A DNA stretch of 64,000 nt from Minisyncoccia bacterium. GTDB taxonomy: Bacteria; Patescibacteriota; Minisyncoccia; Phycocordibacterales; Phycocordibacteraceae. Position 1 is the stretch's first letter; every line of letters begins with the position of its first letter. Under the pieces are notes generated by a model. It searched no databases and was not told the DNA's origin. It worked only from the letters and a program-made list of their open reading frames with translations. The stretch spans positions 18,131 to 82,130 of the forward strand of contig JBBQZW010000003.1 of the NCBI GenBank assembly GCA_038207395.1. Direction: 5' to 3'. Of the stretch, positions 26,587 to 38,329 are shown one piece after another. The translations under genes were made by a program, and so were the position numbers.

Positions 26587-27609
26587 ATGGATGACTCTCG
26601 TTTCTTTTCTATGAATCAACTCTGGCAATCACTTGCGTTCTCTGTCGTCATTGGTGGCGTCTTGGTAACCATTACAGGATATGGTCTTTCATTGATCTCA
26701 AAAGATGAGGGTACGCAGGCACGCACCGCTACTACCACGCAGGAAGTACCCACGCTTCCGGCAGCTGCCGTAGAAGCGGTATCAGCGCTTCCGGCAGCTG
26801 CCGTAGAAGCGGTATCAGCGCTTCCGACAGACCCGTTTACTACTCTTTCTCTTTCTGCTCAATCAGCCATAGTCGTTGATCTTTCCAATGGACACACGCT
26901 CTACTCTCAAAACGCTGATGCGCAGCTCCCCCTAGCTTCGCTCACAAAACTACTCACCGTATATGGCGCGCAGCGCGTCCTTTCTGACGCCTCACTCATT
27001 ACAATTTCAAGCACGTCACTTGCGCAAGATGGAGAGTACGGACTCACTGAAGGAGAAACATTTTCATACAAGGATAGCGCACGCCTAGCACTTACCGCCT
27101 CATCTAATGATGTTGCTCAAGCTATCGCTGAAGCTGCTGCTGCAGTTACCGGTCAAACTCCCGCACAGTTCATGCAGGGCGCTATCCGATCCGCAGGACT
27201 CCTTCATACGAAGGCTGCGAACGGAACTGGCCTTGATATCGACATAACAGAGGCGGGAGCATACGGAAGTGCGCGTGACATGGCACAGCTTGCGAATGAA
27301 TTCTATACTTCTGCTCCTGATATTTCTAAGGCAACTACAAAGCGCACGGTGTCGGTCACTTCGAAAGAAGGCGTAGCTCACACGCTTCCAAATACGAATC
27401 CTATAGTGTCATCGCTGACAGGAATTCTTCTTTCAAAGACTGGGTATACTGATCTAGCCGGAGGAAACCTGGTGGTGATCTTTGATGCCGGGATTAATCA
27501 CCCTGTCGCCGTGGTGGTTCTCGGCTCAACACGCGATGCGCGCTTTACGGATGTTACAAAACTTGTCCGCGCAACACGCGCATCACTCAGCACCCAACCT
27601 GCTCCATAG
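26587..27609 (+). CDS. D-alanyl-D-alanine carboxypeptidase (S11-like serine PBP), membrane-anchored
   Basis: N-terminal TM. AIVVDLSNGHTLYSQNADAQLPLASLTKLLT is an SxxK active-site motif. SSND matches the SxN motif. Confidence 0.7.
   Translation: MDDSRFFSMNQLWQSLAFSVVIGGVLVTITGYGLSLISKDEGTQARTATTTQEVPTLPAAAVEAVSALPAAAVEAVSALPTDPFTTLSLSAQSAIVVDLSNGHTLYSQNADAQLPLASLTKLLTVYGAQRVLSDASLITISSTSLAQDGEYGLTEGETFSYKDSARLALTASSNDVAQAIAEAAAAVTGQTPAQFMQGAIRSAGLLHTKAANGTGLDIDITEAGAYGSARDMAQLANEFYTSAPDISKATTKRTVSVTSKEGVAHTLPNTNPIVSSLTGILLSKTGYTDLAGGNLVVIFDAGINHPVAVVVLGSTRDARFTDVTKLVRATRASLSTQPAP
26755..26830 (+). repeat. in-frame 33-bp tandem duplication (2.3 copies) inside the DD-carboxypeptidase gene
   Basis: cttccggcagctgccgtagaagcggtatcagcg occurs twice exactly (26755-26787 and 26788-26820) plus a partial third. 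It encodes LPAAAVEAVSA twice. Confidence 0.85.
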
Positions 27610-27621
27610 GTAACTAAACAT

Positions 27622-28686
27622 ATGCTCTACTTTGAAGCCGCGCGCGTATTAATTCCCTTCATTGTCTCATTTTCTGTAGGCATTGTACTTGCACCGGTAC
27701 TTGCACACTATTTGTACAAATATAAGGCGTGGAAAAAGAAGGGAGGGAAAGGAAAGGGAATTGGTGACGGAAACGGCACGCCTCTTTTTGATAGTCTGCA
27801 CAAGGAACGCGAAGTTTCGACGCCGCGGCTTGGCGGTATCCTAGTCTGGACCTCAGTATTTACGACAGCGCTACTCCTTGCACTTCTTAGCTTCTTTATA
27901 GGCGGACCGTATTCTTCCCTAAACCTTGTTGACCGCGGGCAAACCTGGCTTCCGCTCTTTGCGCTTATCGTAGGAGGACTTACCGGACTCGTCGATGATG
28001 TTCTGGAGATTCGCACCTCAGCCGGAGGACTTTCTATGCGGTGGCGTCTGCTTGTGGTGGCCGTCTTCGGTGCGTTTGCCGGATGGTGGTTCTACGCAAA
28101 ACTTGGTGTTTCAAGTATCGGTGTTCCATTCTTTGGTGCTATTCCTCTTGGTGGGTTCTTTATTCTCTTTTTCGTACTTGTAACCCTAACCCTGTATGCC
28201 AGTGGTGTTATTGATGGCATTGATGGTCTGGCGGGTGGCGTCTTCTCCATCATCTTTATGGCGTATGCGGGGATTGCCTTTGCTCAAAACCAAGTCTCGC
28301 TCGCCGCATTCGCTGCCACGGTCTCAGGTGCCACGTTTGCCTTCCTTTGGTTCAACATTCCTCCTGCACGCTTTTATCTTTCGGAAACAGGTTCAATGGC
28401 CTTAACCCTTGCACTTGCCGTTACAGCGTTTTCTGCAGACTCACTTGGAGACGGAGTTGGCGTCTTTGTCCTGCCAATTATTGCGCTCCCCCTCTTTGCC
28501 ACGGTAGTCGGGAATGTACTCCAGGTATTCTGGAAAAAAGTATTTAAACGCAAACTCTTCCGTATTGCTCCTATTCATCATCATTTTGAAGCAATTGGCT
28601 GGCCTGCATATAAAGTAGCGATGCGGTACTGGATTGTAACTATCCTTGCCGGTATCTTTGGCATTGCTATCGCGCTTTTGAAGTAA
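27622..28686 (+). CDS. mraY: phospho-N-acetylmuramoyl-pentapeptide transferase
   Basis: Polytopic membrane protein with DD motif (GLVDDVLEI) and APIHHHFE. Confidence 0.93.
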   Translation: MLYFEAARVLIPFIVSFSVGIVLAPVLAHYLYKYKAWKKKGGKGKGIGDGNGTPLFDSLHKEREVSTPRLGGILVWTSVFTTALLLALLSFFIGGPYSSLNLVDRGQTWLPLFALIVGGLTGLVDDVLEIRTSAGGLSMRWRLLVVAVFGAFAGWWFYAKLGVSSIGVPFFGAIPLGGFFILFFVLVTLTLYASGVIDGIDGLAGGVFSIIFMAYAGIAFAQNQVSLAAFAATVSGATFAFLWFNIPPARFYLSETGSMALTLALAVTAFSADSLGDGVGVFVLPIIALPLFATVVGNVLQVFWKKVFKRKLFRIAPIHHHFEAIGWPAYKVAMRYWIVTILAGIFGIAIALLK

Positions 28687-28708
28687 GTTCTAACCTCACT
28701 CTGCCAGC
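28685..28708 (+). repeat. copy 0 of the AAGTTCTAAC...CAGCCAG repeat family; overlaps the mraY stop codon and sits at the left junction of the insertion
   Basis: taAGTTCTAACctcactCTGCCAGC. It shares AAGTTCTAAC and the CAG..CCAGC tail with the six internal copies. Confidence 0.6.
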
Positions 28709-30186
28709 ATTTCTGAAAAGGTAGGGTTTTGAGGTGCTAAAGCGAATATGTTGTACGGTGATTTGTATTGTATTTCCTCGATATTTCTATTGAGCAACAT
28801 AGAGTTCGATAGTGCTTCTGAGAGTATTTCTCGCTTTCGGTCAGGAAGTGCTGTCTTGTATTCATCCGCCAAGGAATTACCTTGTTTAAACTTAGAATAG
28901 ATGAGTTCGATAGTTGCGAGAGGGTCATGAGCTTTCTTCTCTAGTTCCTGCATGCGCTTGGTGAGCCGTACACTTTCATTATCAATTTCCTTTAATTTGG
29001 CTCTGTAGAGCTCGGTGTCTATGTCTCCCTCGGTGTAGGTGTCTACAAGCCTAGACTTGCGTGTAGTGAGCAATTTGAGGGCTTTCTGAGTATCTTCCAA
29101 GGCATGGTCTTGAGTACCTTTTGAATGATGTAGTTCTTCGAGCTTCGCTTTATAAACGATATCAATCATGCGCTGGCTAATCTTGAGCTTATTGAGGTCG
29201 AGAGTTATTTGTTTGTGGAGTTCAATTTCATTGGCATTGAATGAACGTTGATCGCAAATGCCTTTACCATTAGTGCAGTGATAGTAGATATATTTCTCTT
29301 TCTTGAGTTCAGCAGTAATGGCACAACCGCATTGAGCGCAGGTCATGAAGCCGGAGAGCGTGAACGAAAGAGTCTTGCCTCGTGGTTTGCTTTTCTTAGC
29401 ACAAACTTCCTGGCACTTCTGAAATAGTTCGGATGAAATAAGTGGCTCATGATTGCCTAGATATTGAATGCCATTTGATTCCATGATGCCGCAGTAGAAG
29501 GAACTAGTGAGGATTTTCTGTATACCAGATTTATATACTTTCTTGCCGGAAGAAGTGCGCAGTCCTTGTTCAAAGAGTGTCGTAGAGATTGATTGATGGC
29601 CGTGGAGCCCTGTAGCGTACATTTCAAATATCTTTTGGACGTAGGGAGCACGTGCAGTGTCTAAGGCAATAGTCTTGTTTACTTTGTCGTTTACATATCC
29701 AAAAGGAGCACGGTTAATCCAGTCGCCTCGCTTTAGTTTTTCTCTATTTCCTCGCTTAACATTTAAACTTTTCTGATCGTTCTCTAGCTTTGCTTGGGAA
29801 CACAACATCATGAGCATGAACTTGCTGTTTGGGTCGTTCTTGAATTCTTGGGAGTACGTTTTGACTGAAAGTAGTTTTCCGCTGTCCATGAGGTCTACAA
29901 GCTTTCCTAAGTCTCCTGCATTACGCGAGAGTCTGTCAGGAGCCCAGGTGAGTATTGAGTTGTACAAGCCAGAATTGATACCAGCTATCATGCGATTGAA
30001 CTCAGGGCGCATGTCAGCTTTCTTTGCTGAGTGAGATTCTCTAATTATCTCTACAACATTCAGTTCATTACGTTCTGCAATACGCTTCATCTCATTTTCC
30101 TGAGCGTCCAAGGACATTATTTGTCGCTCCTCGCTTTCTGAGGACTTACGAATGTATAAGACATAGTTTTCCATAGATAGGCGCAT
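28696..30186 (-). CDS. large serine recombinase (phage-type serine integrase)
   Basis: N-terminal resolvase catalytic domain YVLYIRKSSESEERQIMSLDAQ, a recombinase domain, a zinc ribbon (CAQCGC...YYHCTNGKGIC) and a C-terminal coiled coil. Start overlaps Rep stop by 1 nt (TAATG). Confidence 0.88.
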   Translation of the reverse strand: MRLSMENYVLYIRKSSESEERQIMSLDAQENEMKRIAERNELNVVEIIRESHSAKKADMRPEFNRMIAGINSGLYNSILTWAPDRLSRNAGDLGKLVDLMDSGKLLSVKTYSQEFKNDPNSKFMLMMLCSQAKLENDQKSLNVKRGNREKLKRGDWINRAPFGYVNDKVNKTIALDTARAPYVQKIFEMYATGLHGHQSISTTLFEQGLRTSSGKKVYKSGIQKILTSSFYCGIMESNGIQYLGNHEPLISSELFQKCQEVCAKKSKPRGKTLSFTLSGFMTCAQCGCAITAELKKEKYIYYHCTNGKGICDQRSFNANEIELHKQITLDLNKLKISQRMIDIVYKAKLEELHHSKGTQDHALEDTQKALKLLTTRKSRLVDTYTEGDIDTELYRAKLKEIDNESVRLTKRMQELEKKAHDPLATIELIYSKFKQGNSLADEYKTALPDRKREILSEALSNSMLLNRNIEEIQYKSPYNIFALAPQNPTFSEMLAE

Positions 30187-31097
30187 TATGCTCTTTCTGG
30201 GTAATTCCTCAAATCGAGAGATTCAGCAGTTTCTACTGAGTCGATATAAATCTCAGTCATTCGTCGTTTAAGCTGTTGTAGGTTCTCGTTCTTTTTGTGA
30301 AAGTCAAAAGAATCTTCAATTGAGTTAGGTGCAGTGAAAACTATAAACGGTGAATTGAGAGCTACGAATCCGCCTTTCAACTGAAGATTAAAAGGGTAGC
30401 GATCAGCGATTTGCAGTAGTTGTGCAAAGGGAACGTTTCCTTCTCGGAAGTCGTCAAACAAAAGACATTCGTCTTGTTGATACCCTGTACCTGGCCAGTG
30501 ACCATCTGATACGGAACAGATTTCAGTAAAGTTTCTGTATACAAGTGAGGTTTTTCCGACGCCTGTATTTCCATATATCCAAAATACCTTGGGTGGTATG
30601 TTTTGGTCGCGATGTCTTAAATAAATTGGCTGAAGACACTGGGCATAGCGAAGTTGCTGTTGGTTGTTTGCAAACTCATCAATAATTTTATTGAGATCTT
30701 TAGGATTTGCTTTAATAGCTTCTTTGATTTCGCTCATGTCAGTACGAGAACCTTGTTTGCTGGGTTCCCCAAACACAAAGAAGTTTCCATCCTTTTGCGT
30801 ATACGTCTCATTTGTTTCAACACTGCCATTTGCTTTTTCTACATGGAACTTGAGTAGCTCTCCATTTCGAGTGAAGTTTAAATATTTTTGTAGATATGGA
30901 ATACGCTGAGCATTCTTAAGTTCAATATATCCCTGAATGTGAGGAGTTCCGTTTTCTTCACCAATCTCCAAACCGTAGCTAATGTAGTAATGATTTTCTA
31001 ATAAAGCGGCAAGAACGTGTAATCTCTCCAAGTCCTCCTGGGAGTAATTGTTGATAGTAAAACAGTATCTACGGCTTTTAATCTGTTTCTTCTCCAT
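30186..31097 (-). CDS. rep: rolling-circle replication initiator Rep, CRESS-DNA-virus type (HUH endonuclease + SF3 helicase)
   Basis: Motif I CFTINNY, motif II PHIQGYIEL, motif III YTQKDG, Walker A GNTGVGKTS, Walker B LLFDDF, motif C FTAPNS. ATG at 31097; an upstream TTG at 31112 gives the track ORF. Confidence 0.85.
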   Translation of the reverse strand: MEKKQIKSRRYCFTINNYSQEDLERLHVLAALLENHYYISYGLEIGEENGTPHIQGYIELKNAQRIPYLQKYLNFTRNGELLKFHVEKANGSVETNETYTQKDGNFFVFGEPSKQGSRTDMSEIKEAIKANPKDLNKIIDEFANNQQQLRYAQCLQPIYLRHRDQNIPPKVFWIYGNTGVGKTSLVYRNFTEICSVSDGHWPGTGYQQDECLLFDDFREGNVPFAQLLQIADRYPFNLQLKGGFVALNSPFIVFTAPNSIEDSFDFHKKNENLQQLKRRMTEIYIDSVETAESLDLRNYPERA

Positions 31098-31119
31098 ATT
31101 AATTTTGTCCAAATGTCCC

Positions 31120-31149
31120 GAAGTCGGGGGTAATACTATCCCCGACTTC
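31120..31149 (-). other. origin-like stem-loop: 10-bp GC-rich stem with nonanucleotide TAGTATTAC in the loop (minus strand), 23 nt upstream of Rep
   Basis: Plus strand: gaagtcgggg-gtaatactat-ccccgacttc. Minus strand reads GAAGTCGGGG-ATAGTATTAC-CCCCGACTTC. The loop contains the NAGTATTAC nick motif of circo- and nanovirus origins. CCCGAC-containing direct repeats flank it. Confidence 0.6.
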
Positions 31150-31357
31150 CGTGGCGCGGTGCCGGACTAAAGTCCCGACACTCGCCCCGTCCCCAAACAA
31201 GCATCGAATGAGCGAAGCAAGGTGCAGTTGAGCATCATCCGCAGAAACGGCCACGCCTTGGGTGGCGGCCATTTCTGCCTGATACTCCTGAATTAGTGCC
31301 GTACTAAAATGCATTAGCCCACCCTATAAAAAAGGAGAGTGAGTATGGGTGAGAGGT

Positions 31358-32224
31358 TTAGTGAGGATGCTCTAAGTACCGTTCGTGCACGGCGAGGTGG
31401 TCAGCATGAACGCTGAATATTTGAGAGAGTCGTGGGTGCTTTTTAACAAAGCGATTGAGAGCATCTTTATACGATATCTTCTCCGCTTTCATTTTGTTTT
31501 GCTCAAACTCCGGTATGTCGGTATAGTCTATTCTGTTTTCACTGAACTGGTTGAATAGAGCCTTGAGCGCAAAGTGTTCCTTGTTGGGTTTGTTTTGATA
31601 TCCAACTGATACAGTTTGATCATCAAAGTGGAATTCATACCTTTCAGGGTCATACCAAATACCGGCATCTTTAACATCTTCAAAAGAAATGCCGTTATTC
31701 ATTTTCTCTAGTAATCGCTCAATACTTCTAAAGGGCGAAAGGACAATGGTTGCTACAACCTCAGGAGGGTTTCCTTTTATCGCATCTCTCGCGGCATCAA
31801 GAACATCTTTTATATTCATGTCGTTCTCTAAGAAGACTTCTTTAGGAATGAATATGTTTGCGGGTATCGTTTTCTCAATCATGTCTGTACCAGCTAAGTT
31901 TAGTGCTTCAACAAAGTCAGTTGTATCTAGATTCGCAAGTTCATTGAGAACTTTTTCATAGTTTTCATCAGCTAGAAACTTCTGAATCTCAGGGTGAGCT
32001 TTCTGTTCGAATACATAGAAGCCAACGAGATATCCTTTGCTATCAAGTTGGGTAAGGGTGTTCAAAAATACAGGAACGGTTAGAGCGGACAAGTTGATAT
32101 GCTCGTACGTGATTCGGAGCGTATGCTGCTCTTCATCCTTAAGATGGGGTACTTGTTTCCGTGCATGGAAAAGAAGCCTTAAGACGTTGAGGACAGCTAG
32201 TATGTTCTGCTCACGAGGGGTCAT
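31358..32224 (-). CDS. hypothetical protein of the mobile element (288 aa)
   Basis: No recognisable motif and no Arg-rich capsid-like N-terminus. AT-rich like Rep. Confidence 0.5.
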   Translation of the reverse strand: MTPREQNILAVLNVLRLLFHARKQVPHLKDEEQHTLRITYEHINLSALTVPVFLNTLTQLDSKGYLVGFYVFEQKAHPEIQKFLADENYEKVLNELANLDTTDFVEALNLAGTDMIEKTIPANIFIPKEVFLENDMNIKDVLDAARDAIKGNPPEVVATIVLSPFRSIERLLEKMNNGISFEDVKDAGIWYDPERYEFHFDDQTVSVGYQNKPNKEHFALKALFNQFSENRIDYTDIPEFEQNKMKAEKISYKDALNRFVKKHPRLSQIFSVHADHLAVHERYLEHPH

Positions 32225-32248
32225 ATGGGGATATTGTATAGTTATTGC

Positions 32249-33028
32249 ATGAGTTTAGAAGGACCACCACGCAAAAAGAAAACTTTCTATGAAATTCTAG
32301 GAGTAGGCGCTGATGCTTCTGATAAAGAGATTAGTGAATCTTTTAGAGAGCTTTCAAAGAAGTTTCATCCTGATAATCAGGAAAGTGGAGATGAGGAAAA
32401 GTACAAGAAAATCTCTGAGGCGTATACCGCTTTAAAAAAACCAGAATCAAGAGACAAATACGATACTCAACGAGGTCATAGTTCTGCATCAGCTAGCCCG
32501 GGAGCTACACGCCCTACATATGAGGCACGAAAACCACGGGTTATTAATCTCACGATTGAGACTAATAATGGTAAAGCCTTTATAACCAAAGAGGGTAAGC
32601 GAATTTCTAAAGAGTATGACGCAATACAAAAAGCAAAAGAAGGTATTGCTGATTTTTATATCGGTATTCTACCGAACCAAGTAGATATTTTTAATCCAAA
32701 TGGAATGTTTGATATTGTTGAAGCAAGTTATAAATCCATTGAATACAAAAATGGAATTCTGGTTGGTAAAAGCCTTTATGGGAATAGTGAAAGCCTCTTG
32801 AGTTTAAAGAGTGGAAAAGAAGTCATTGGAGGTTACACAGAGTTCAATCTAATCGACGGCCATATTGTCGGAACTAATATGTACGGCACGGGAGTTGATG
32901 TAATTGATTCTAAGACCGGATTACCCATCTCGCATAATTTTAAGACGATTGAGATAGAGGACGGCAAGCTAGTTGCAACAAGTTGGGACGGGAAGAAAGG
33001 CAGGGTTTCCGTTGAGAAAAAGAAATAA
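32249..33028 (+). CDS. J-domain (DnaJ-like) protein with C-terminal glycine-rich repeat domain
   Basis: TFYEILGVGADASDKEISESFRELSKKFHPDN is a canonical J-domain with HPD. C-terminal repeats YKNGILVGKSLYGN / LIDGHIVGTNMYGTG. ATG at 32249 preferred over 32225. Confidence 0.7.
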   Translation: MSLEGPPRKKKTFYEILGVGADASDKEISESFRELSKKFHPDNQESGDEEKYKKISEAYTALKKPESRDKYDTQRGHSSASASPGATRPTYEARKPRVINLTIETNNGKAFITKEGKRISKEYDAIQKAKEGIADFYIGILPNQVDIFNPNGMFDIVEASYKSIEYKNGILVGKSLYGNSESLLSLKSGKEVIGGYTEFNLIDGHIVGTNMYGTGVDVIDSKTGLPISHNFKTIEIEDGKLVATSWDGKKGRVSVEKKK

Positions 33029-33045
33029 TCCCTTTTCAATATACC

Positions 33046-33074
33046 CTTGACATATTCATGTAAAGGGTATATAA
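33046..33074 (+). promoter_or_regulatory. consensus sigma-70 promoter (TTGACA-17-TATAAT) embedded in a 9-bp inverted repeat
   Basis: cccTTGACAtattcatgtaaagggtaTATAATc, with tataccctt...aagggtata arms. An RBS GGGAGA precedes the ATG at 33108. Confidence 0.5.
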
Positions 33075-33107
33075 TCTTTACAAGTTCATTCAATTGGGAG
33101 AATTACA

Positions 33108-33356
33108 ATGACTCAGGCAAGTTTTGTGCTGGAAGACATCGGTTCGGAAAATCGAACCTATGAATTCAGTCAGGACATCGATTTCGCGCCTTACAATGGT
33201 ATGAAGATCGATCTCGGCAATGCTCCGCCCTGCTACGTGCACTCAGCTGTGTACAGGCTGGACGAGCGGAGCTGGAACGTTCGCCTCAAGCCACGGCACA
33301 ATGAGCAAAAGCCCGAGCCTGGAGAGCTTGAGCGGCTCGGGTGGAAGACCTATTAG
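33108..33356 (+). CDS. hypothetical small protein (82 aa), GC-rich cassette-like gene
   Basis: ORF with RBS. GC content is clearly higher than the flanks. A hairpin terminator follows at 33362-33389. Confidence 0.45.
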   Translation: MTQASFVLEDIGSENRTYEFSQDIDFAPYNGMKIDLGNAPPCYVHSAVYRLDERSWNVRLKPRHNEQKPEPGELERLGWKTY

Positions 33357-33401
33357 CTCGAAGCCCCGCTGCAGAAATGTGGCGGGGCTAATTCATTAAT
33401 A

Positions 33402-33430
33402 GAGTTCTAACATCGACCCAGACAGCCAGC
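33402..33430 (+). repeat. copy A of the 28-bp repeat
   Basis: gAGTTCTAACaTCGACCCAGACAGCCAGC. Confidence 0.7.
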
Positions 33431-33529
33431 ACCAAACCACAAAGCCCCATATGTACGTGCTAAAAGAAAGAGGCGGCCCGAAGGTCGCCTCTTTGCGCAA
33501 ATTATCCGGTGCGCATTATTTCGGAATGG

Positions 33530-33865
33530 TCAGGCTTTGAAATATTTGCCTTGCGCACGGGCTTCTCCCCTGGTCTTCCACCCATCTTCACGAAATCCAT
33601 CGTAGTCGTGAGCATACACGTAGAAGTAAAGGGTGATGTTCGGGGTCCCGTCCTCATGGCGCCAGTGGAAAATCTGCGAGACCTCATCTGCCATATCGTC
33701 GCCGAGCTGGAACATTTCGGCTTCGCGAGGAAGAACTGGCCACTCAAACTCCTTGAAAATTGGCTCGAGATCGAGCTTTTCTTTGTCCTCGCAGAATTTT
33801 TCTCCAATACGAACACAAGCTACAAACTTGATCATGTAATCCTCCATCAAAAGAGCTGGGTACAT
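33530..33865 (-). CDS. hypothetical protein (111 aa; may start at the internal Met near 33835)
   Basis: GGAGG RBS upstream of ATG at 33865. A hairpin terminator lies downstream at 33466-33495. Confidence 0.45.
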   Translation of the reverse strand: MYPALLMEDYMIKFVACVRIGEKFCEDKEKLDLEPIFKEFEWPVLPREAEMFQLGDDMADEVSQIFHWRHEDGTPNITLYFYVYAHDYDGFREDGWKTRGEARAQGKYFKA

Positions 33866-33899
33866 ATTACGTCATTAAACATATATTGTCAAGTATAAA

Positions 33900-33927
33900 A
33901 AGTTCTAACGTCGACCCAGACAGCCAC
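33900..33927 (+). repeat. copy B of the 28-bp repeat
   Basis: tataaaAAGTTCTAACGTCGACCCAGACAGCCAcg. Flanked by TTGTCAAGTATA and CTTGACTTATAC. Confidence 0.7.
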
Positions 33928-34020
33928 GGATAAGAAACTTGACTTATACTATATTTCATGCCATCTTATATACAGCGAATTTAAGGAATAAGTTAACCCT
34001 TTCACCTTACGGAGGTCTTT

Positions 34021-34206
34021 ATGCCCGAAGTTCAGAACACTCGCATGTGCGCGACCCCTACTTGCCGCACTCCGGTTACCAACCCGCAGTCAGGTTACTG
34101 CGATTCATGTCTTGAGTTCGATCAGCTGACTTACGACCTTGAAACAGCTCGTTTCCAGCAAGAGCTGGCCGATGAGGATCTTCAACGTTTAATGCAAGGG
34201 GATTAG
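34021..34206 (+). CDS. small zinc-ribbon protein (61 aa)
   Basis: CATPTCRTP...CDSC (two CxxC pairs). A GGAGG RBS lies 7 nt upstream. Confidence 0.45.
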   Translation: MPEVQNTRMCATPTCRTPVTNPQSGYCDSCLEFDQLTYDLETARFQQELADEDLQRLMQGD

Positions 34207-34270
34207 CGGTGCGAATGGAACCCGATCACGCTTTTGGCGAGGTCGGGTTTTCTCTATTTAGAGGTATAAA

Positions 34271-34296
34271 AAGTTCTAACGTCGACCTAAACAGCC
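34271..34296 (+). repeat. copy C of the 28-bp repeat (diverged tail)
   Basis: tataaaAAGTTCTAACGTCGACCtAaACAGCC. Confidence 0.65.
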
Positions 34297-34344
34297 TTGA
34301 AGTAAGAAATTCAAAAGGGAGACCATTGCTGGTCTCCCTTGGGT

Positions 34345-34605
34345 TCAGGAACGAACCCGATTTGCTCCTTCTCCTTCCGCGCCGGTTCCAGCTAGAGCGA
34401 AGATCCATGCCATGACACACAGAACGGGATTTGTGTGCCAGTAGTAGGTTGTCCCGAGGAATGCGGCAAGTAGGCGTGGACAGAAGAGCCACGCCAACCA
34501 GCTCAAGATGCCGAACGGTGTCACCACCGCAAACAGCATCGTGAGACGCGGACAGAAGAGCAGAAAGAATAGAAAGAGCCAGCCGTGGTTTGCCCAGAAG
34601 TCCAT
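34345..34605 (-). CDS. small hydrophobic membrane protein (86 aa)
   Basis: Strongly hydrophobic. RBS GGAGG before the ATG at 34605. Bidirectional hairpin gggagaccattgctggtctccc at 34318-34339. Confidence 0.4.
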   Translation of the reverse strand: MDFWANHGWLFLFFLLFCPRLTMLFAVVTPFGILSWLAWLFCPRLLAAFLGTTYYWHTNPVLCVMAWIFALAGTGAEGEGANRVRS

Positions 34606-34676
34606 GTGAAATCCTCCCTGAATAGGCGATAGCTGAGACTATATTAGCATCATTCATAGTACTTGTCAAGTATAAA

Positions 34677-34705
34677 AAGTTCTAACGTCGACCCAGACAG
34701 CCAGC
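34677..34705 (+). repeat. copy D of the 28-bp repeat
   Basis: cttgtcaagtataaaAAGTTCTAACGTCGACCCAGACAGCCAGC. Confidence 0.7.
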
Positions 34706-34731
34706 GAAAAGTATTTATTCTTGTTAATATT

Positions 34732-35124
34732 ATGTTGATGACAGAAAGTAATGTGCAGGACCAAAAACAAATGACACTTTGGGCAGCCGAATGTGCTGAA
34801 CACGTACTTTCATACTTTGAACAGGAACGGCCTGGAGACATGAGGCCGCGATTAGCGATAGAAGCAGCGCGCGCGTGGGTAAAGGGTGAACTAAAAGTTA
34901 GCGAGGCTAGGACTGCTGCGTTTGATGCTCATGACGCAGCACGCGAGGTAAAAACAGACGCAGCTATCGCTGCGGCGCGTGCAGCAGGCCACGCTGCAGC
35001 TACGGTCCATGTCATAACTCATGCTCCGCACGCGGCAGAGTATGCCGTGAAGGCTGCCGAAGCCGCGAGTATTACAGGTGAACGTAAGTGGCAAAAGACG
35101 CGCGATCAGGTATCAAGAATGTAA
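34732..35124 (+). CDS. hypothetical Ala-rich protein (about 131 aa)
   Basis: Start chosen at the internal ATG (MLMTESNVQDQKQ...) of ORF 34663..35124, because the upstream part overlaps repeat copy D. Confidence 0.4.
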   Translation: MLMTESNVQDQKQMTLWAAECAEHVLSYFEQERPGDMRPRLAIEAARAWVKGELKVSEARTAAFDAHDAAREVKTDAAIAAARAAGHAAATVHVITHAPHAAEYAVKAAEAASITGERKWQKTRDQVSRM

Positions 35125-35125
35125 T

Positions 35126-35154
35126 AAGTTCTAACGTCGACCCAGACAGCCAGC
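35126..35154 (+). repeat. copy E of the 28-bp repeat
   Basis: gtaatAAGTTCTAACGTCGACCCAGACAGCCAGC, directly after the stop codon. Confidence 0.7.
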
Positions 35155-35704
35155 AATGTTTTAAAATAAAATTCAAACAGTGAAAAAGAACGCTACTTTA
35201 GAACCGATAATATAAAAAGGTCCGTGACTTTCGCCACGGACCCTAAAAAGTGCAGATACTTTACTCAATCGCCTGCGCTAAAGACTCGCTTTCGCTGCGC
35301 CTACACCTAACGGCTTAAGCTTGCAAAGATCTGCTGGGACAGCATTTAGGCTTGGAAGATTCCGAGTGACCAATTAGGCATGGTTTCAGATCTCCCTTGT
35401 TCGACTCTTACGAGCTCCTCGGCTCAAATGAATGGCTTTGGAATATGAGCTCTGCCGAGGCTCACACCTACTCTGTAGCTTTCGCCTCATCCACATGCGC
35501 AGTATCCTGCTCATGTTTGCGGGTACGGGACGGAGCCCTTATGGAGGACCCTCCTCTATGGATTTCCCCTGGATTATCGATATGCTAAAGGCCTGGACCG
35601 GTTTCAATATACGGCACTTACTCCCGGTATCTCGGTTGATGTCCACGCTGTCCAGTATTAAGAATACTTCGACTCTAACAGCTGTCAATGTGAGGATGTG
35701 AGGA

Positions 35705-35732
35705 AAGTTCCAACGTTGTCCCAGACAGCCAG
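35705..35732 (+). repeat. copy F of the 28-bp repeat (most diverged)
   Basis: AAGTTCcAACGTtGtCCCAGACAGCCAG. Confidence 0.6.
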
Positions 35733-35740
35733 TGCCACTC

Positions 35741-36115
35741 CTAAATCTTTCGTGCTCCTGTAGGAAAGGTTGTTATCCGTCGAGTAATTAATCCTGTAGC
35801 TCCAAAGTAAAAGTATTCTTGAAATTGAACATCCACCGACTCGCCGTTTTTAAGTGAGCCAGAAAATCTTCCCGTTGTTGATACTGCGTTTGGCAGCGTT
35901 GTTACAAGAATATCGGTATGCGTTCCATGCGCGATTATCCTTTCTTCACTATAGAATTTTTTAAACGCAGTCATTCCTTGGAGTGGAGTAGTGCCATCCC
36001 GCAAGTATTCGATCTCATTATCAAATAATGCATAGAGTGATTTGTAATCACCTTCGTCAATATACCGGTAGTAGTTCAGTACGGCTTCTTTCCACAAAGT
36101 GGCCTGCTCGCTCAT
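35741..36115 (-). CDS. NTF2-like / SnoaL-like superfamily protein
   Basis: MSEQATLWKEAVLNYYRYIDEGDYKSLYALFDNEIEYLRDGTTPLQGMTAFKKFY is a typical SnoaL-like N-terminus. Confidence 0.5.
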   Translation of the reverse strand: MSEQATLWKEAVLNYYRYIDEGDYKSLYALFDNEIEYLRDGTTPLQGMTAFKKFYSEERIIAHGTHTDILVTTLPNAVSTTGRFSGSLKNGESVDVQFQEYFYFGATGLITRRITTFPTGARKI

Positions 36116-36200
36116 AGATATAGTATATAACCTCTAGGGCAGAGCTTTTATGTGATATCCGTAGCCCTACTTTGTTAGTAATGCACTATACTTACTCACA

Positions 36201-36404
36201 ATGAGCACCGAGACCCATTTTATAAACGAGCTTGGCAACACTATTCATATTCAAGTTGAGGAACAAGAAATACAGGATCATCCAGGCATCCTGATTACTA
36301 TTACAGGGCCCGACTCTACCTCTACTAACCACATTACGTGCGAAGAAGCTGAGGTTTTGCAGGGACTGCTTTCTAAAACACTACATATCAGTAACTCAGA
36401 CTAG
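36201..36404 (+). CDS. hypothetical small protein (67 aa)
   Basis: ORF only. Confidence 0.3.
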   Translation: MSTETHFINELGNTIHIQVEEQEIQDHPGILITITGPDSTSTNHITCEEAEVLQGLLSKTLHISNSD

Positions 36405-36446
36405 TTAGAGTAGTTTGGTTTCGCATTCGTTTGCTAGAATAGGGGA

Positions 36447-37559
36447 ATGAAAGTTACAGGAGACAAGATCTTTGCGAGTATTGTACTCATCTTAGTGATT
36501 GGAGGTATTGCGCTCTTTTCCTCAGCGGCGCTTGGGCTTCTTGCACGTGTTGATGGCTCTCCCTGGAGGCTTGTTATTTCTCAAATCGGTCTTGGGCTTA
36601 TCCCCGGCTTTATACTCCTCACCGCTTTTCGTTTTCTACCTCAGAAACGACTCGCTCAATTCATTACACCTTTTTACGTAGTGACTATTATCCTTACGCT
36701 CATTGTCTTTATTCCGCATATCGGCCTTACCTTAAACGGTGCACGGCGATGGATTAATCTCGGGTTTACTACCTTTCAGCCAAGCGAGTTCCTAAAGCTC
36801 AGTGTTGTGCTCATGCTTGCAGCGTACCTCGCTCATGCAAAAGGAAAGATCAAAGAAATTCGCACAGGACTTGTACCATTTGGGGTCATTGTTGGGATTC
36901 CGTGTGCGCTACTTCTTTTTCAGCCAAATACTTCAACGGTATTAATTATTGGCTTAACCTCGGCAACCATGTACTTCCTTGCAGGAGCACCGTGGCGGGA
37001 CTTTGCCATCATGGCAGTTGCGAGTGTTGCGTTACTTGTTGTGCTCGTTATCGCGCGCCCGTATCTTATGGAGCGCGTTACCACGTTCATAAATCCTAAA
37101 AACAATGCGCAAACAAGCGGGTACCACATTCAGCAGTCACTTATCGCTATTGGATCTGGAAAAATAACGGGCCGGGGGTTTGGACAAAGTGTACAGAAGT
37201 TTAATTACCTTCCGGAAGCTGAAAGCGACTCAGTATTCGCCGTATACGGAGAAGAGTTTGGATTCTTAGGTACCGTTCTGCTGGTTATGCTTTTCATTGC
37301 CTTTGCGTTGCGAGGACTTATTATTGCCGGTGAGTCGTCTTCACTATTTGGTTCATACGCAGTTACCGGTCTGACCCTTTTGATTACGTTCTCGGCATTT
37401 ATGAATATTGGGGCATTGCTTGGCATTCTCCCCTTAACCGGACTTCCGCTCCCATTCATTAGTCACGGAGGAACGGCACTTATGGCCGCTCTTATGGCTG
37501 TGGGAATAATTCTCAACATCGCTGCACATCGAACAAAGCGAAAAACTCAGCTGGCATAA
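36447..37559 (+). CDS. ftsW: SEDS-family peptidoglycan glycosyltransferase FtsW/RodA
   Basis: Ten-TM profile, GFGQSVQKFNYLPEAESDSVFAVYGEEFGFLG and PFISHGGTALMA motifs. Confidence 0.9.
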   Translation: MKVTGDKIFASIVLILVIGGIALFSSAALGLLARVDGSPWRLVISQIGLGLIPGFILLTAFRFLPQKRLAQFITPFYVVTIILTLIVFIPHIGLTLNGARRWINLGFTTFQPSEFLKLSVVLMLAAYLAHAKGKIKEIRTGLVPFGVIVGIPCALLLFQPNTSTVLIIGLTSATMYFLAGAPWRDFAIMAVASVALLVVLVIARPYLMERVTTFINPKNNAQTSGYHIQQSLIAIGSGKITGRGFGQSVQKFNYLPEAESDSVFAVYGEEFGFLGTVLLVMLFIAFALRGLIIAGESSSLFGSYAVTGLTLLITFSAFMNIGALLGILPLTGLPLPFISHGGTALMAALMAVGIILNIAAHRTKRKTQLA

Positions 37560-37561
37560 CC

Positions 37562-38329
37562 ATGAACATTATTTGTCTAAACATCTGGGGAGGCAGAGCA
37601 GGTAAGGAGAAATTACTCGCATTCTTTGAAACACATAAAGAAACTACTGATATTTTTTGCCTCCAGGAAGTTTGGTCAGACCGCTATGAGTTCCTTGAAG
37701 GAGCACTTGCCGGAGGCGTACCTATTAGCCACGACACTATTATGTCGTATGCACTCCAAGACATATGCGCCGTACTCCCTGATCATGTACCGTATTTCAA
37801 GCCAAGCTTCTTACATAGTTATGGACTGTGTATGTTCGTCCATAAAAAGCTAAACGTGATTGAAGAAGGTGATATATTCGTGCACTTTGCACGTGGGTAC
37901 ATACCTGAAGGTGATGTAGGGAATCACGCGCGCAACATGCAGTATGTGACCATAGAGACCGAGCTCGGACCTAAGACCGTTCTTAACCTGCACGGACTAT
38001 GGAATGGAGCAGGGAAGTCAGACTCAGATCAGCGCATCGTGCAGACTGACCGCATACTTAGCTTTATTTCTTCACTTTCAAACCCCTTTGTACTGTGCGG
38101 AGATTTTAATCTCTCCCCAGACACTGAGAGTTTGCAAAGAATTGAACGAGAAGGGCATCGAAACCTTATTTCCGAATATGGCATTACCTCTACCCGTACG
38201 AGTTTTTACACGAAGCCTGAGCGATATGCTGACTACGCATTTGTTAGTGAAGGAGTTGAAGTTCTTGGATTCGAAATACTTCCAGACGAAGTCTCTGACC
38301 ATGCACCGCTTCGCATCGAGATTGCGTGA
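37562..38329 (+). CDS. endonuclease/exonuclease/phosphatase (EEP) family protein
   Basis: IICLNIWGG...DIFCLQEV (N-terminal Mg-binding motif) and SDHAPLRIEI (C-terminal catalytic His) are EEP hallmarks. Confidence 0.75.
   Translation: MNIICLNIWGGRAGKEKLLAFFETHKETTDIFCLQEVWSDRYEFLEGALAGGVPISHDTIMSYALQDICAVLPDHVPYFKPSFLHSYGLCMFVHKKLNVIEEGDIFVHFARGYIPEGDVGNHARNMQYVTIETELGPKTVLNLHGLWNGAGKSDSDQRIVQTDRILSFISSLSNPFVLCGDFNLSPDTESLQRIEREGHRNLISEYGITSTRTSFYTKPERYADYAFVSEGVEVLGFEILPDEVSDHAPLRIEIA

Follow-up and report, generated by a model that had tools for sequence, protein, structure and literature searches.

A putative cassette array operated by a large serine recombinase between mraY and ftsW of a Minisyncoccia bacterium, and related arrays in the Candidate Phyla Radiation

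Organization of the region

The window, i.e., the whole 64,000-nt stretch of DNA analysed here (contig JBBQZW010000003.1 of assembly GCA_038207395.1, positions 18,131 to 82,130), belongs to a Minisyncoccia bacterium. Between the housekeeping genes mraY and ftsW it carries a 4,722-bp plasmid-like element encoding a large serine recombinase (LSR) and, behind this element, a row of small genes separated by copies of a short repeat, further referred to as M. We consider it likely that we deal here with the proximal portion of a site-specific array of cassettes, operated by the LSR, in which a single site located right after mraY (site B) would act like attI or attB, and the M copies like attC. In other words, the system looks like an integron in its working, albeit with a serine recombinase, and it is apparently undescribed. 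The features involved are as follows.

28686..28709, + strand: site B, AGTTCTAACCTCACTCTGCCAGCA; begins at the last base of the mraY stop codon; candidate attB/attI-like anchor
28710..33431, no strand: plasmid-like element, 4,722 bp, from the recombinase 3' end (P' arm) to R1 (P arm); GC content 41.9%
28696..30186, - strand: LSR, 496 aa; its last codons overlap site B and the crossover site
33403..33431, + strand: R1, copy of M, P-type site; predicted P arm of the attP of the element, attR when in the chromosome
33901-33929: R2, copy of M; crossover end degenerate, CCACGG
34272-34300: R3, copy of M; end degenerate, CCTTGA
34678-34706: R4, copy of M; crossover GCCAGC at 34700-34705
35127-35155: R5, copy of M
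35706-35734: R6, more diverged copy of M

M is an asymmetric repeat of 29-34 nt with the consensus AGTTCYAACrTCGwCCCAGACAGCCAGCA (in the window, AGTTCTAACrTCGACCCAGACAGCCAGCA). Its six copies, starting at 33403, 33901, 34272, 34678, 35127 and 35706, have the same orientation and are all found inside 2.4 kb of the 64-kb window, where none is expected by chance. These direct repeats, overlooked by the initial annotation of the block 33100-35740, split the region into single-gene units of 498, 371, 406, 449 and 579 bp, with genes on either strand.

Relation between site B and repeat M

Site B mimics the 3' end of tRNA-Gln, with the crossover region GCCAGC at 28703-28708, and in relatives the equivalent position is occupied by a genuine tRNA-Gln 3' end. 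One relative without the LSR (locus L043) has mraY-TAG-GGTTCGAATCCTGGTCTGTCAGCA, followed by unrelated sequence and then by three M copies before ftsW. Since this locus carries B right after mraY and lacks the LSR, the whole B site is chromosomal.

M corresponds to B with 5 bp added between the GTTCYAAC box and the GCCAGC crossover box. The tRNA-Gln ends and their mimics read GTTCGAnn, 11 nt, AGCA, while M reads GTTCYAAC, ATCGT, 11 nt, AGCA. Thus, in the conserved arm the spacer from GTTCNANN to AGCA is 11 nt long in B and tRNA-Gln and 16 nt long in M, and the GTTC-to-AGCA distance amounts to 19 nt for B and to 24 nt for M. In large serine integrases, the zinc-ribbon motif lies at positions 16-24 of the attP half-sites and 5 bp nearer the centre in attB (PMC3783163). 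As the offset observed in the conserved arm matches this rule, M can be identified as the P-type arm and B as the B-type arm for one and the same protein.

Two other identities of M were considered and rejected. It is not a tRNA fragment, being 5 nt longer than the tRNA 3' end, and its position 61 cannot pair with G53. Nor is it a Xer/dif-like or other palindromic site, as no dyad symmetry was seen by inspection.

Probable recombination products in related samples

Three Logan contigs from two related runs (L152 and L153 from SRR19962014, L154 from SRR19962010) are 100% identical to the window. L153 is 4,752 nt long and has a 30-nt terminal repeat, which is the criterion of Logan for a circular contig (PMC12424806). 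It thus gives a circle of 4,722 bp equal to 28710-33431 of the window, the identity of 100% extending over 28703-33431. The circle carries the genes of the recombinase, Rep, ORF71, ORF288, the DnaJ-domain protein and ORF82, and at its junction R1, i.e., a copy of M, is fused to the 3' end of the LSR gene, as predicted for attP. The integrated form is represented by the chromosome of the window, with its attL and attR, and by L154 from the sister sample, which contains attR with the junction between R1 and cassette 2.

The junction changes the recombinase itself: the integrated LSR ends in EMLAE (496 aa), while the circular one ends in EMLAVWVDVRTLLMN (506 aa), the frame being read through the reverse complement of M. 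This change of the C-terminus (28696-28712 versus the L153 junction) could serve as a switch between the plasmid and integrated states.

L152, which comes from the same strain as the window, reveals one more probable product. It is identical to the window over 27224-28708 (1485 nt, 100%) and then continues with 34706-34729, which joins B to the right flank of R4. The difference of 5,997 bp means that the plasmid and cassettes 2-4 are gone and cassette 5 directly follows B. The breakpoints lie inside the GCCAGC common to B and R4, and these 6 nt are the only contiguous nucleotides that the two have in common at the junction. The contig ends exactly 30 nt past the last B-specific base, as if a k=31 assembly graph merged there with an alternative path; hence the B-R4 form and the unrearranged one probably coexist in this sample.

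These products bear on a reverse assignment of the sites, in which M would be the host target (attB) of the LSR plasmid, with the crossover inside GTTCTAAC, and the repeats of the array would be unrelated host repeats that had existed before. It is in line with the fact that the left junction has AAGTTCTAAC in common with the repeats. However, the circular form (L153) holds a complete M, L043 and L152 show the whole B through GCCAGC to be host sequence, and the breakpoints map to GCCAGC, not to GTTCTAAC. A crossover inside GTTCTAAC with M as the host target is ruled out by L043, L152 and L153, and the probability left for this assignment is negligible.

Distribution among the Candidate Phyla Radiation

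A degenerate M pattern was searched in a genome collection, which resulted in 60 loci; M copies were counted at no more than 7 mismatches, and 8 kb were fetched per locus. Nearly all of these loci belong to Patescibacteria, or the Candidate Phyla Radiation (CPR), including Saccharibacteria, Paceibacteria, Parcubacteria, Nomurabacteria and Kaiserbacteria. They contain 149 M copies, all co-oriented within a locus, and none was found in shuffled sequence. At least two copies are present in 44 loci and at least three in 24, with a median spacing of 658 bp. In the logo, conservation spans -5 to +29 and also covers positions that the search pattern did not specify; the core of ~34 nt is asymmetric, and its flanks are unconserved. 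A scan of viral_contigs for M returned no matches.

In a typical array unit, a terminator with a T-run just precedes M and a TTGACA-type promoter just follows it. Among 114 cassettes (median length 634 bp), the longest open reading frame (ORF) runs along the direction of M in 83 and opposite to it in 29. Pfam matches among the 84 cassette ORFs scanned include HAD hydrolases (5), SAM methyltransferases (4), NUDIX (4), GNAT (2) and inositol monophosphatase (2), as well as a YafQ toxin, dCTP deaminase and ParB_N; many ORFs had no match. No fragments of LSR or Rep were detected inside the 114 cassettes. Similar cargo recurs in distant places. Loci L023 and L052, from different CPR lineages, have a common cassette at 90% identity, and the same promoter and gene unit follows M in L060 and a B-like remnant in L024, the homology starting right after AGCA.

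Arrays occur at junctions of housekeeping genes with no adjacent recombinase. In five loci the array follows pyrG, and in at least four of these five B is supplied by a tRNA-Gln gene; in the window and L043, the array is placed between mraY and ftsW. The strand of the B-type sites agrees with that of M in 26 cases and differs from it in 2. Where the left edge of the array is visible (39 loci), B is located to the left of the first M in 19, at a distance of 224-871 bp in 16 of them, and at least 8 of these array-left sites are genuine tRNA-Gln genes.

The layout of the element is also seen in L018, L032, L048 and L006, where the LSR gene faces outward at one end and the opposite end carries M. 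A metagenome scan with the LSR alignment gave 80 loci. Among LSR homologues with at least 58% identity, taken together with L070 (43%), and with enough upstream sequence, M was present in 6 of 7, in the expected orientation and at 3.6-5.4 kb from where the LSR gene starts; no M was found at that position in the other homologues (32-48% identity). In 10 independent loci, the 3' end of a close LSR homologue overlaps the 3' end of tRNA-Gln, of tRNA-Ser (one lineage) or of a mimic, and M is located at the opposite end of the element, at a distance of 3.6-5.5 kb. The single counter-case is L068, where an M-spaced site abuts the LSR. No terminal overlaps were found in the LSR contigs from JGI/ENA, L068 included. 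As to other enzymes, no recurrent recombinase family besides LSR was found beside the arrays in the 60 loci, where no dedicated search with tyrosine-recombinase profiles was made.

A second conserved element follows AGCA at approximately 15-20 of 192 sites. It consists of aTTTAGCTATATTTAGCAACA, N5-8 and (G)GTTCGAGTCC-N-GAT, with the variant TTTGAGGCTTATTTTTCAACA, and contains a T-loop-like box in direct orientation ~38 nt past the crossover. It is absent from the window, and its carriers are L004, L008, L009 (right after a genuine tRNA-Gln), L024, L030, L032, L036, L039 and others.

Some homologues of the cassette genes of the window are flanked by different repeats. In L142, a JGI contig of 947 nt, the ORF111 homologue lies between copies of GAGTTGGAG(C/G)AGGTTCGACACTTTTG, while in groundwater contigs L147 and L148 homologues of cassette genes are located between repeats, with an 89-nt module ending in AGGTTCTAACGTCCTCCAGCCCCCGCAACA and having M-like spacing. 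Sister systems with diverged sites may therefore exist.

Proposed mechanism and alternatives

The mechanism that we propose is as follows. B would be the anchor, or entry site, and each mobile unit would end on its right in M. The LSR would recombine B with one of the M copies, with the crossover inside GCCAGC. If the two sites are on different molecules, a circle would be inserted at B and the older units would be pushed towards ftsW; if they are on the same molecule, everything from B to the chosen M would be excised as a circle. The newest unit of the window would then be the 4.7-kb LSR/Rep plasmid (28710-33431) integrated at the anchor site of the array, and the five recombinase-less units behind it (those of ORF111, ORF61, ORF86 and the Imm5-like protein and one non-coding) would be moved in trans. 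Conservation is limited to the left arm of each site; B would therefore persist at the left junction after the insertion and remain reusable, which would lead to one B followed by many M copies. We presume that it is this LSR that catalyses the B x M exchange, its zinc-ribbon domain presumably reading the GTTCYAAC box and the enzyme tolerating the variable right arms. Movement of the recombinase-less cassettes in trans and replication of the circle by Rep are likewise predicted.

Several observations weigh against this mechanism. Well-studied LSRs use two recognisable half-sites per att site, while here the right arms after GCCAGC(A) are unconserved in the logo and show no clear dyad symmetry, and by eye the P' arm has only 4 of 8 or 9 matches to the inverted GTTCYAAC. 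Of the 39 loci where the left edge can be seen, 20 lack a recognisable B, and the 8 kb fetched per locus contained the LSR gene in only 4 of 60 cases. A deletion at a 6-nt microhomology could in principle have produced the L152 junction, and the de Bruijn circle L153 could reflect a tandem duplication instead of a free plasmid; no circles of recombinase-less cassettes were observed. Finally, L004 and L042, two contigs of one metagenome-assembled genome (MAG), are identical up to the AGCAA of an M and diverge after it, i.e., they split after M and not after B, a pattern that B x M exchange alone does not predict. Judging from this pair, M x M exchange or deletion mediated by repeats may contribute as well.

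The latter case is what might be expected if M were a non-recombinational intergenic repeat (of the repetitive extragenic palindromic, uptake-signal or regulatory kind) and the variants arose by homologous or microhomology deletion, and the location of M between terminators and promoters fits such a repeat as well. We nevertheless regard this explanation as highly improbable. M is confined to arrays and strictly co-oriented, it is physically fused to the LSR gene in the circle, and it differs from the tRNA target of the LSR by exactly the 5-bp offset of attP and attB. As for deletion, B and R4 offer no more than their 6 contiguous nucleotides at the junction.

A different history would be passive accretion and decay, in which only full-length LSR/Rep plasmids integrate serially at B and the cassettes are what remains of them after the loss of the recombinase and Rep, as in an island of the tycheposon or composite staphylococcal cassette chromosome (SCC) type. 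LSR-bearing elements are indeed always in the first position, next to B. In L018, M at the element end is followed by ~27 nt resembling the LSR 3' end. This remnant indicates that the site had hosted an element before, and it would fit a second insertion into a B that was already occupied. Serial insertion pushing older elements inward is documented for tycheposons (10.1101/2020.12.28.424599). On the other side stand the 114 cassettes, which lack detectable remnants of LSR or Rep and are compact promoter-gene-terminator units with a median of 634 bp. Moreover, like cassettes recur in distant genomes with the homology stopping exactly at the sites, and the B-R4 junction uses an M that does not belong to the element. 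Passive accretion and decay therefore appears unlikely to us, and exchange between B and M under the action of the LSR is preferred.

A more far-reaching statement would be that CPR possess a functional integron analogue built on an LSR. In such an analogue, B would be a reusable site derived from tRNA-Gln, a universal M of 29-34 nt would tag hundreds of single-gene cassettes exchanged in trans across class-level lineages, and, with one specific arm per site, B x M recombination alone would both insert and excise without a directionality factor. We put this forward tentatively, as a possibility somewhat short of probable.

Comparison with known systems

As to integrons, a number of traits are common to them and the array described here: a fixed primary site heading the array, small mobile units that each bear a conserved site at one end and would be excisable as circles, and a varied pool of accessory genes common to several lineages. 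The dedicated primary site distinct from the cassette sites (B, 28686-28709) is a likeness of function, not homology. The differences are the following. Integrons use a tyrosine recombinase (IntI), whereas here the only adjacent recombinase is the LSR, and its gene resides on the mobile plasmid, which is itself the first "cassette". The sites of integrons are attC of 55-140 nt, imperfect palindromes that fold as single-stranded DNA hairpins; M, with its asymmetric core of ~34 nt, belongs with B to short double-strand-type half-sites, apparently derived from a tRNA 3' end. Instead of promoterless co-oriented cassettes with a common promoter Pc, the cassettes here have TTGACA-type promoters of their own and both orientations.

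The same differences decide against a classical integron or a cluster of attC sites lacking integron-integrases (CALIN), in which the repeats would be attC recombined as folded single strands by IntI. This would account for small units, mostly with one gene each, that form an array and alternate with a conserved repeat, and the cargo (GNAT, NUDIX, methyltransferases, toxin, immunity protein) is like that of chromosomal integrons. However, the repeats are asymmetric and only 29-34 nt long, the 66-nt single-strand folds have z from -0.9 to +1.2 on either strand, the cassettes have promoters and terminators of their own and occur in both orientations (83 plus, 29 minus), the adjacent recombinase is of the serine type, and the circle junction fuses M to its gene. 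An attC-like fold of M is ruled out, no single-strand structure having been found, and we ascribe to an integron or CALIN only a very remote chance.

In SCCmec and other composite SCC islands, the large serine recombinases CcrAB or CcrC act at rlmH (orfX), the units have 3-60 kb, and excision circles are formed. Common to both are an LSR that integrates elements at a conserved gene's 3' end, direct repeats on the borders of tandem units, and units without a recombinase, which in SCC presumably move in trans. Tandem units bounded by direct repeats, including recombinase-less ones, are indeed what the window contains. In contrast, the anchor here is not rlmH (orfX), the site of the Ccr enzymes, but the 3' end of tRNA-Gln, or a mimic of it, downstream of mraY or pyrG, and the units are single genes of 0.4-0.9 kb. 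The repeated site is not a copy of the anchor but an attP-type half-site 5 bp longer than it, spread over Patescibacteria.

Tycheposons of Prochlorococcus also form tRNA-anchored islands with serial insertion of elements carrying replication genes and accumulation of cargo (10.1101/2020.12.28.424599). They mostly use tyrosine recombinases and are bounded by partial tRNA copies, with integrase remnants, whereas here attP-type arms and minimal cassettes without such remnants are found. The internal boundaries are not partial copies of the anchor tRNA, M being 5 nt longer than any tRNA 3' end. In SCC, tycheposon islands and M arrays alike, elements accrete at a conserved gene or tRNA.

With phage LSRs (A118/LI, Bxb1, phiC31; PMC3783163), our LSR has in common the domains, the short crossover identity, the 5-bp motif shift and the circular attP form. 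Its domain architecture, the circular attP, the attL and attR and the short common crossover are those of attP/attB recombination by LSR. The difference is that here one arm per site is conserved, B is apparently reusable, and attP-type arms pile up in tandem. Neither a reusable B nor tandem attP-type arms are expected for a strictly unidirectional attP x attB reaction.

The 4.7-kb element fits the class of pCRESS integrative plasmids, which have a Rep with HUH and superfamily 3 (S3) helicase domains and integrate site-specifically (PMC6668415); that paper describes no cassette array, this serine recombinase or this att logic. A literature survey, whose coverage left out most subscription journals, so that novelty is unproven, found no description of M, of the logic of B and M, or of such CPR arrays.

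Possible significance

CPR bacteria have tiny genomes with few recognised mobile elements, and the exchange of accessory genes among them is poorly understood. The near-invariant M label, common to Saccharibacteria, Paceibacteria, Nomurabacteria, Kaiserbacteria and others, would offer a concrete route of gene flux, the labelled cassettes encoding HAD hydrolases, NUDIX enzymes, methyltransferases, GNATs, toxins and immunity proteins. If the proposed mechanism is true, the integron principle would have been independently invented with a serine recombinase, and the arrays would provide a natural test of how far the geometry of attP and attB half-sites alone sets the outcome of a large serine integrase reaction. 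In practical terms, M and B can be used as simple probes to detect, by sequence, variable gene pools in CPR metagenomes, and the LSR with its short sites is a candidate multi-cassette landing-pad tool. A recent report describes Saccharibacteria as naturally competent and genetically manipulable (PMC10187176).

Gene content of the element and the cassettes

The features of the element and of the units behind it, besides those given above, are listed below.

30186..31112, - strand: CRESS-like Rep; HUH nuclease and S3 helicase; Pfam Viral_Rep 1.6e-11, RNA_helicase 6.3e-7
31099-31314, - strand: ORF71, element gene, on circle L153
31358-32224, - strand: ORF288, element gene, on circle L153
32225-33028, + strand: DnaJ-domain protein, element gene, on circle L153
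33039..33372, + strand: ORF82 unit; promoter 33047-33075 in a 15-nt inverted repeat, GGGAGA ribosome-binding site, ORF82 (33108-33356), terminator hairpin
33432..33929, no strand: cassette 2, 498 bp; bidirectional terminator, ORF111/101, then R2
33530-33865, - strand: ORF111/101; own TTGACA-17-TAATAT promoter, terminator hairpin after the gene
33930..34300, no strand: cassette 3, 371 bp; ORF61, then R3
34021-34206, + strand: ORF61, four-Cys zinc-ribbon-like protein
34301..34706, no strand: cassette 4, 406 bp; terminator, ORF86, then R4
34345-34605, - strand: ORF86, small membrane protein; own TTGACA-17-TAATAT promoter, terminator after the gene
34707..35155, no strand: cassette 5, 449 bp; Imm5_like gene, then R5
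34732-35124, + strand: Imm5_like immunity protein, Ala-rich ORF of 130 aa; PF21805, E=7e-40
35156..35734, no strand: cassette 6, 579 bp; promoter and terminator, then R6

The LSR has the Pfam domains Resolvase (PF00239, 2e-22), Recombinase (PF07508, 9e-16) and Zn_ribbon_recom (PF13408, 1.3e-8) and matches integrase in PHROGs (4.6e-84). The CRESS-like (circular Rep-encoding single-stranded) Rep is the probable replication protein of the circular form, and its homologues are present in L018 and L006. In L018, which has the same layout, the LSR is 92% and Rep 64% identical to those of the window. The MAG containing L018 is labelled Paceibacterota, while the housekeeping genes of the window are closest to those of a Saccharibacteria MAG (73% identity for MraY), which suggests, if the MAG labels are right, that the plasmid recently moved between CPR classes.

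ORF82, an orphan protein, is carried on circle L153. The TTGACA-17-TATAAT promoter noted by the initial annotation matches at 12 of 12 positions (33047-33075). It lies in an inverted repeat with arms of 15 nt (33039-33053 / 33058-33072). This perfect promoter of the sigma-70 type thus sits in a repeat that resembles an operator. ORF82 is the gene of the plasmid nearest the P arm and might be regulated cargo or a recombination accessory factor.

The degenerate crossover ends of R2 and R3 fit the idea that cassettes 2-4 now act as one block. ORF111 has two relatives at 71-72% identity, and in an unrelated contig of 796 nt (L141) its homologue forms a 506-bp unit with M on both sides and a different upstream neighbour. 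An AlphaFold2 model of ORF111 from a three-sequence alignment reached a pLDDT of 42.6, too low for a fold search. ORF61 has a match of 59% in L005, with the same terminator and then an M copy. ORF86 has 34 relatives at 52-68% identity, which are found partly in arrays with repeats of other families and partly in ordinary operons; this family is therefore not limited to the M system. Look-ups of the exact LSR, ORF111 (111-aa form), SnoaL-like and Imm5-like proteins returned no record.

In cassette 6, a promoter on the minus strand (35688 to 35661) is followed by a strong terminator (35244 to 35217), and the ORFs between the two do not exceed 49 aa. The predicted 444-nt transcript folds with z = -3.4 and has no Rfam match, the Rfam scan of 28000-37000 having given only a sub-threshold hammerhead-like match. 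This unit may encode a small RNA or be a decayed gene.

Composition of the block 33100-35740

The initial annotation had taken this block for a distinct GC-rich one inside the insertion, in the mid-50s % GC, with cargo of the toxin/antitoxin, immunity or anti-defence type from a third source. Its small ORFs of 82, 111, 61, 86 and 130/153 aa are found where it had put them, and three of them (ORF111, ORF86 and ORF61) are supported as genes by homologues. The hairpin terminators, too, are real; several were confirmed, including those following ORF111 and ORF86. The overall counts of promoter-like and terminator-like sites are not above those of shuffled sequence.

The composition turned out to be different. 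The block has 49.1% GC, only two 400-nt windows reaching 52-54%, as compared to 46.6% for the whole window and to 47.6% (left) and 46.2% (right) for the host flanks. This is approximately +1.3 standard deviations (SD), and ~4% of equal-sized windows are equally or more GC-rich, so that the block lies within the host variation (49.1% versus 46-48%) and is not compositionally set apart. A step does exist at ~33100, although only relative to the adjacent recombinase/Rep/DnaJ block (28687-33099, 41.2%) and not to the host. Nor is the block one unit inside the insertion: ORF82 and R1 belong to the 4,722-bp plasmid, and the rest is a separate cassette array.

Regarding the cargo, the notion of cassettes is borne out in essence: discrete cassettes with promoters and terminators of their own are present, and one of them encodes an immunity protein (Imm5_like). 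Apart from the latter, no toxin/antitoxin or anti-defence family was identified among the small ORFs in Pfam, PADLOC and PHROGs, a weak partial match to KwaA (E=6e-4) being the sole one of the defence type. The step from 41% to 49% GC and the immunity-family protein are what speaks for a compositionally foreign GC-rich island of toxin/antitoxin or anti-defence genes. With the GC content equal to that of the host within ~1.3 SD and no such families besides the KwaA match, there is hardly any likelihood of such an island, and since the GC content lies within the host range, the basis for a third source is unsupported.

Adjacent sequences

Between R6 and ftsW (35735-36446) there are a SnoaL-like gene (35741-36115, - strand) and ORF67 (36201-36404, + strand). 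In L043 and L027, M is located only ~80-130 nt upstream of ftsW. The stretch with the SnoaL-like gene and ORF67 is either the last cassette, with its M lost, or host sequence. Further downstream, a gene of the endonuclease/exonuclease/phosphatase family (37562-38329) lies between ftsW and murG, which are adjacent in L043 and L027. In both the window and L043, murD is absent between mraY and ftsW, its position being taken by the array.

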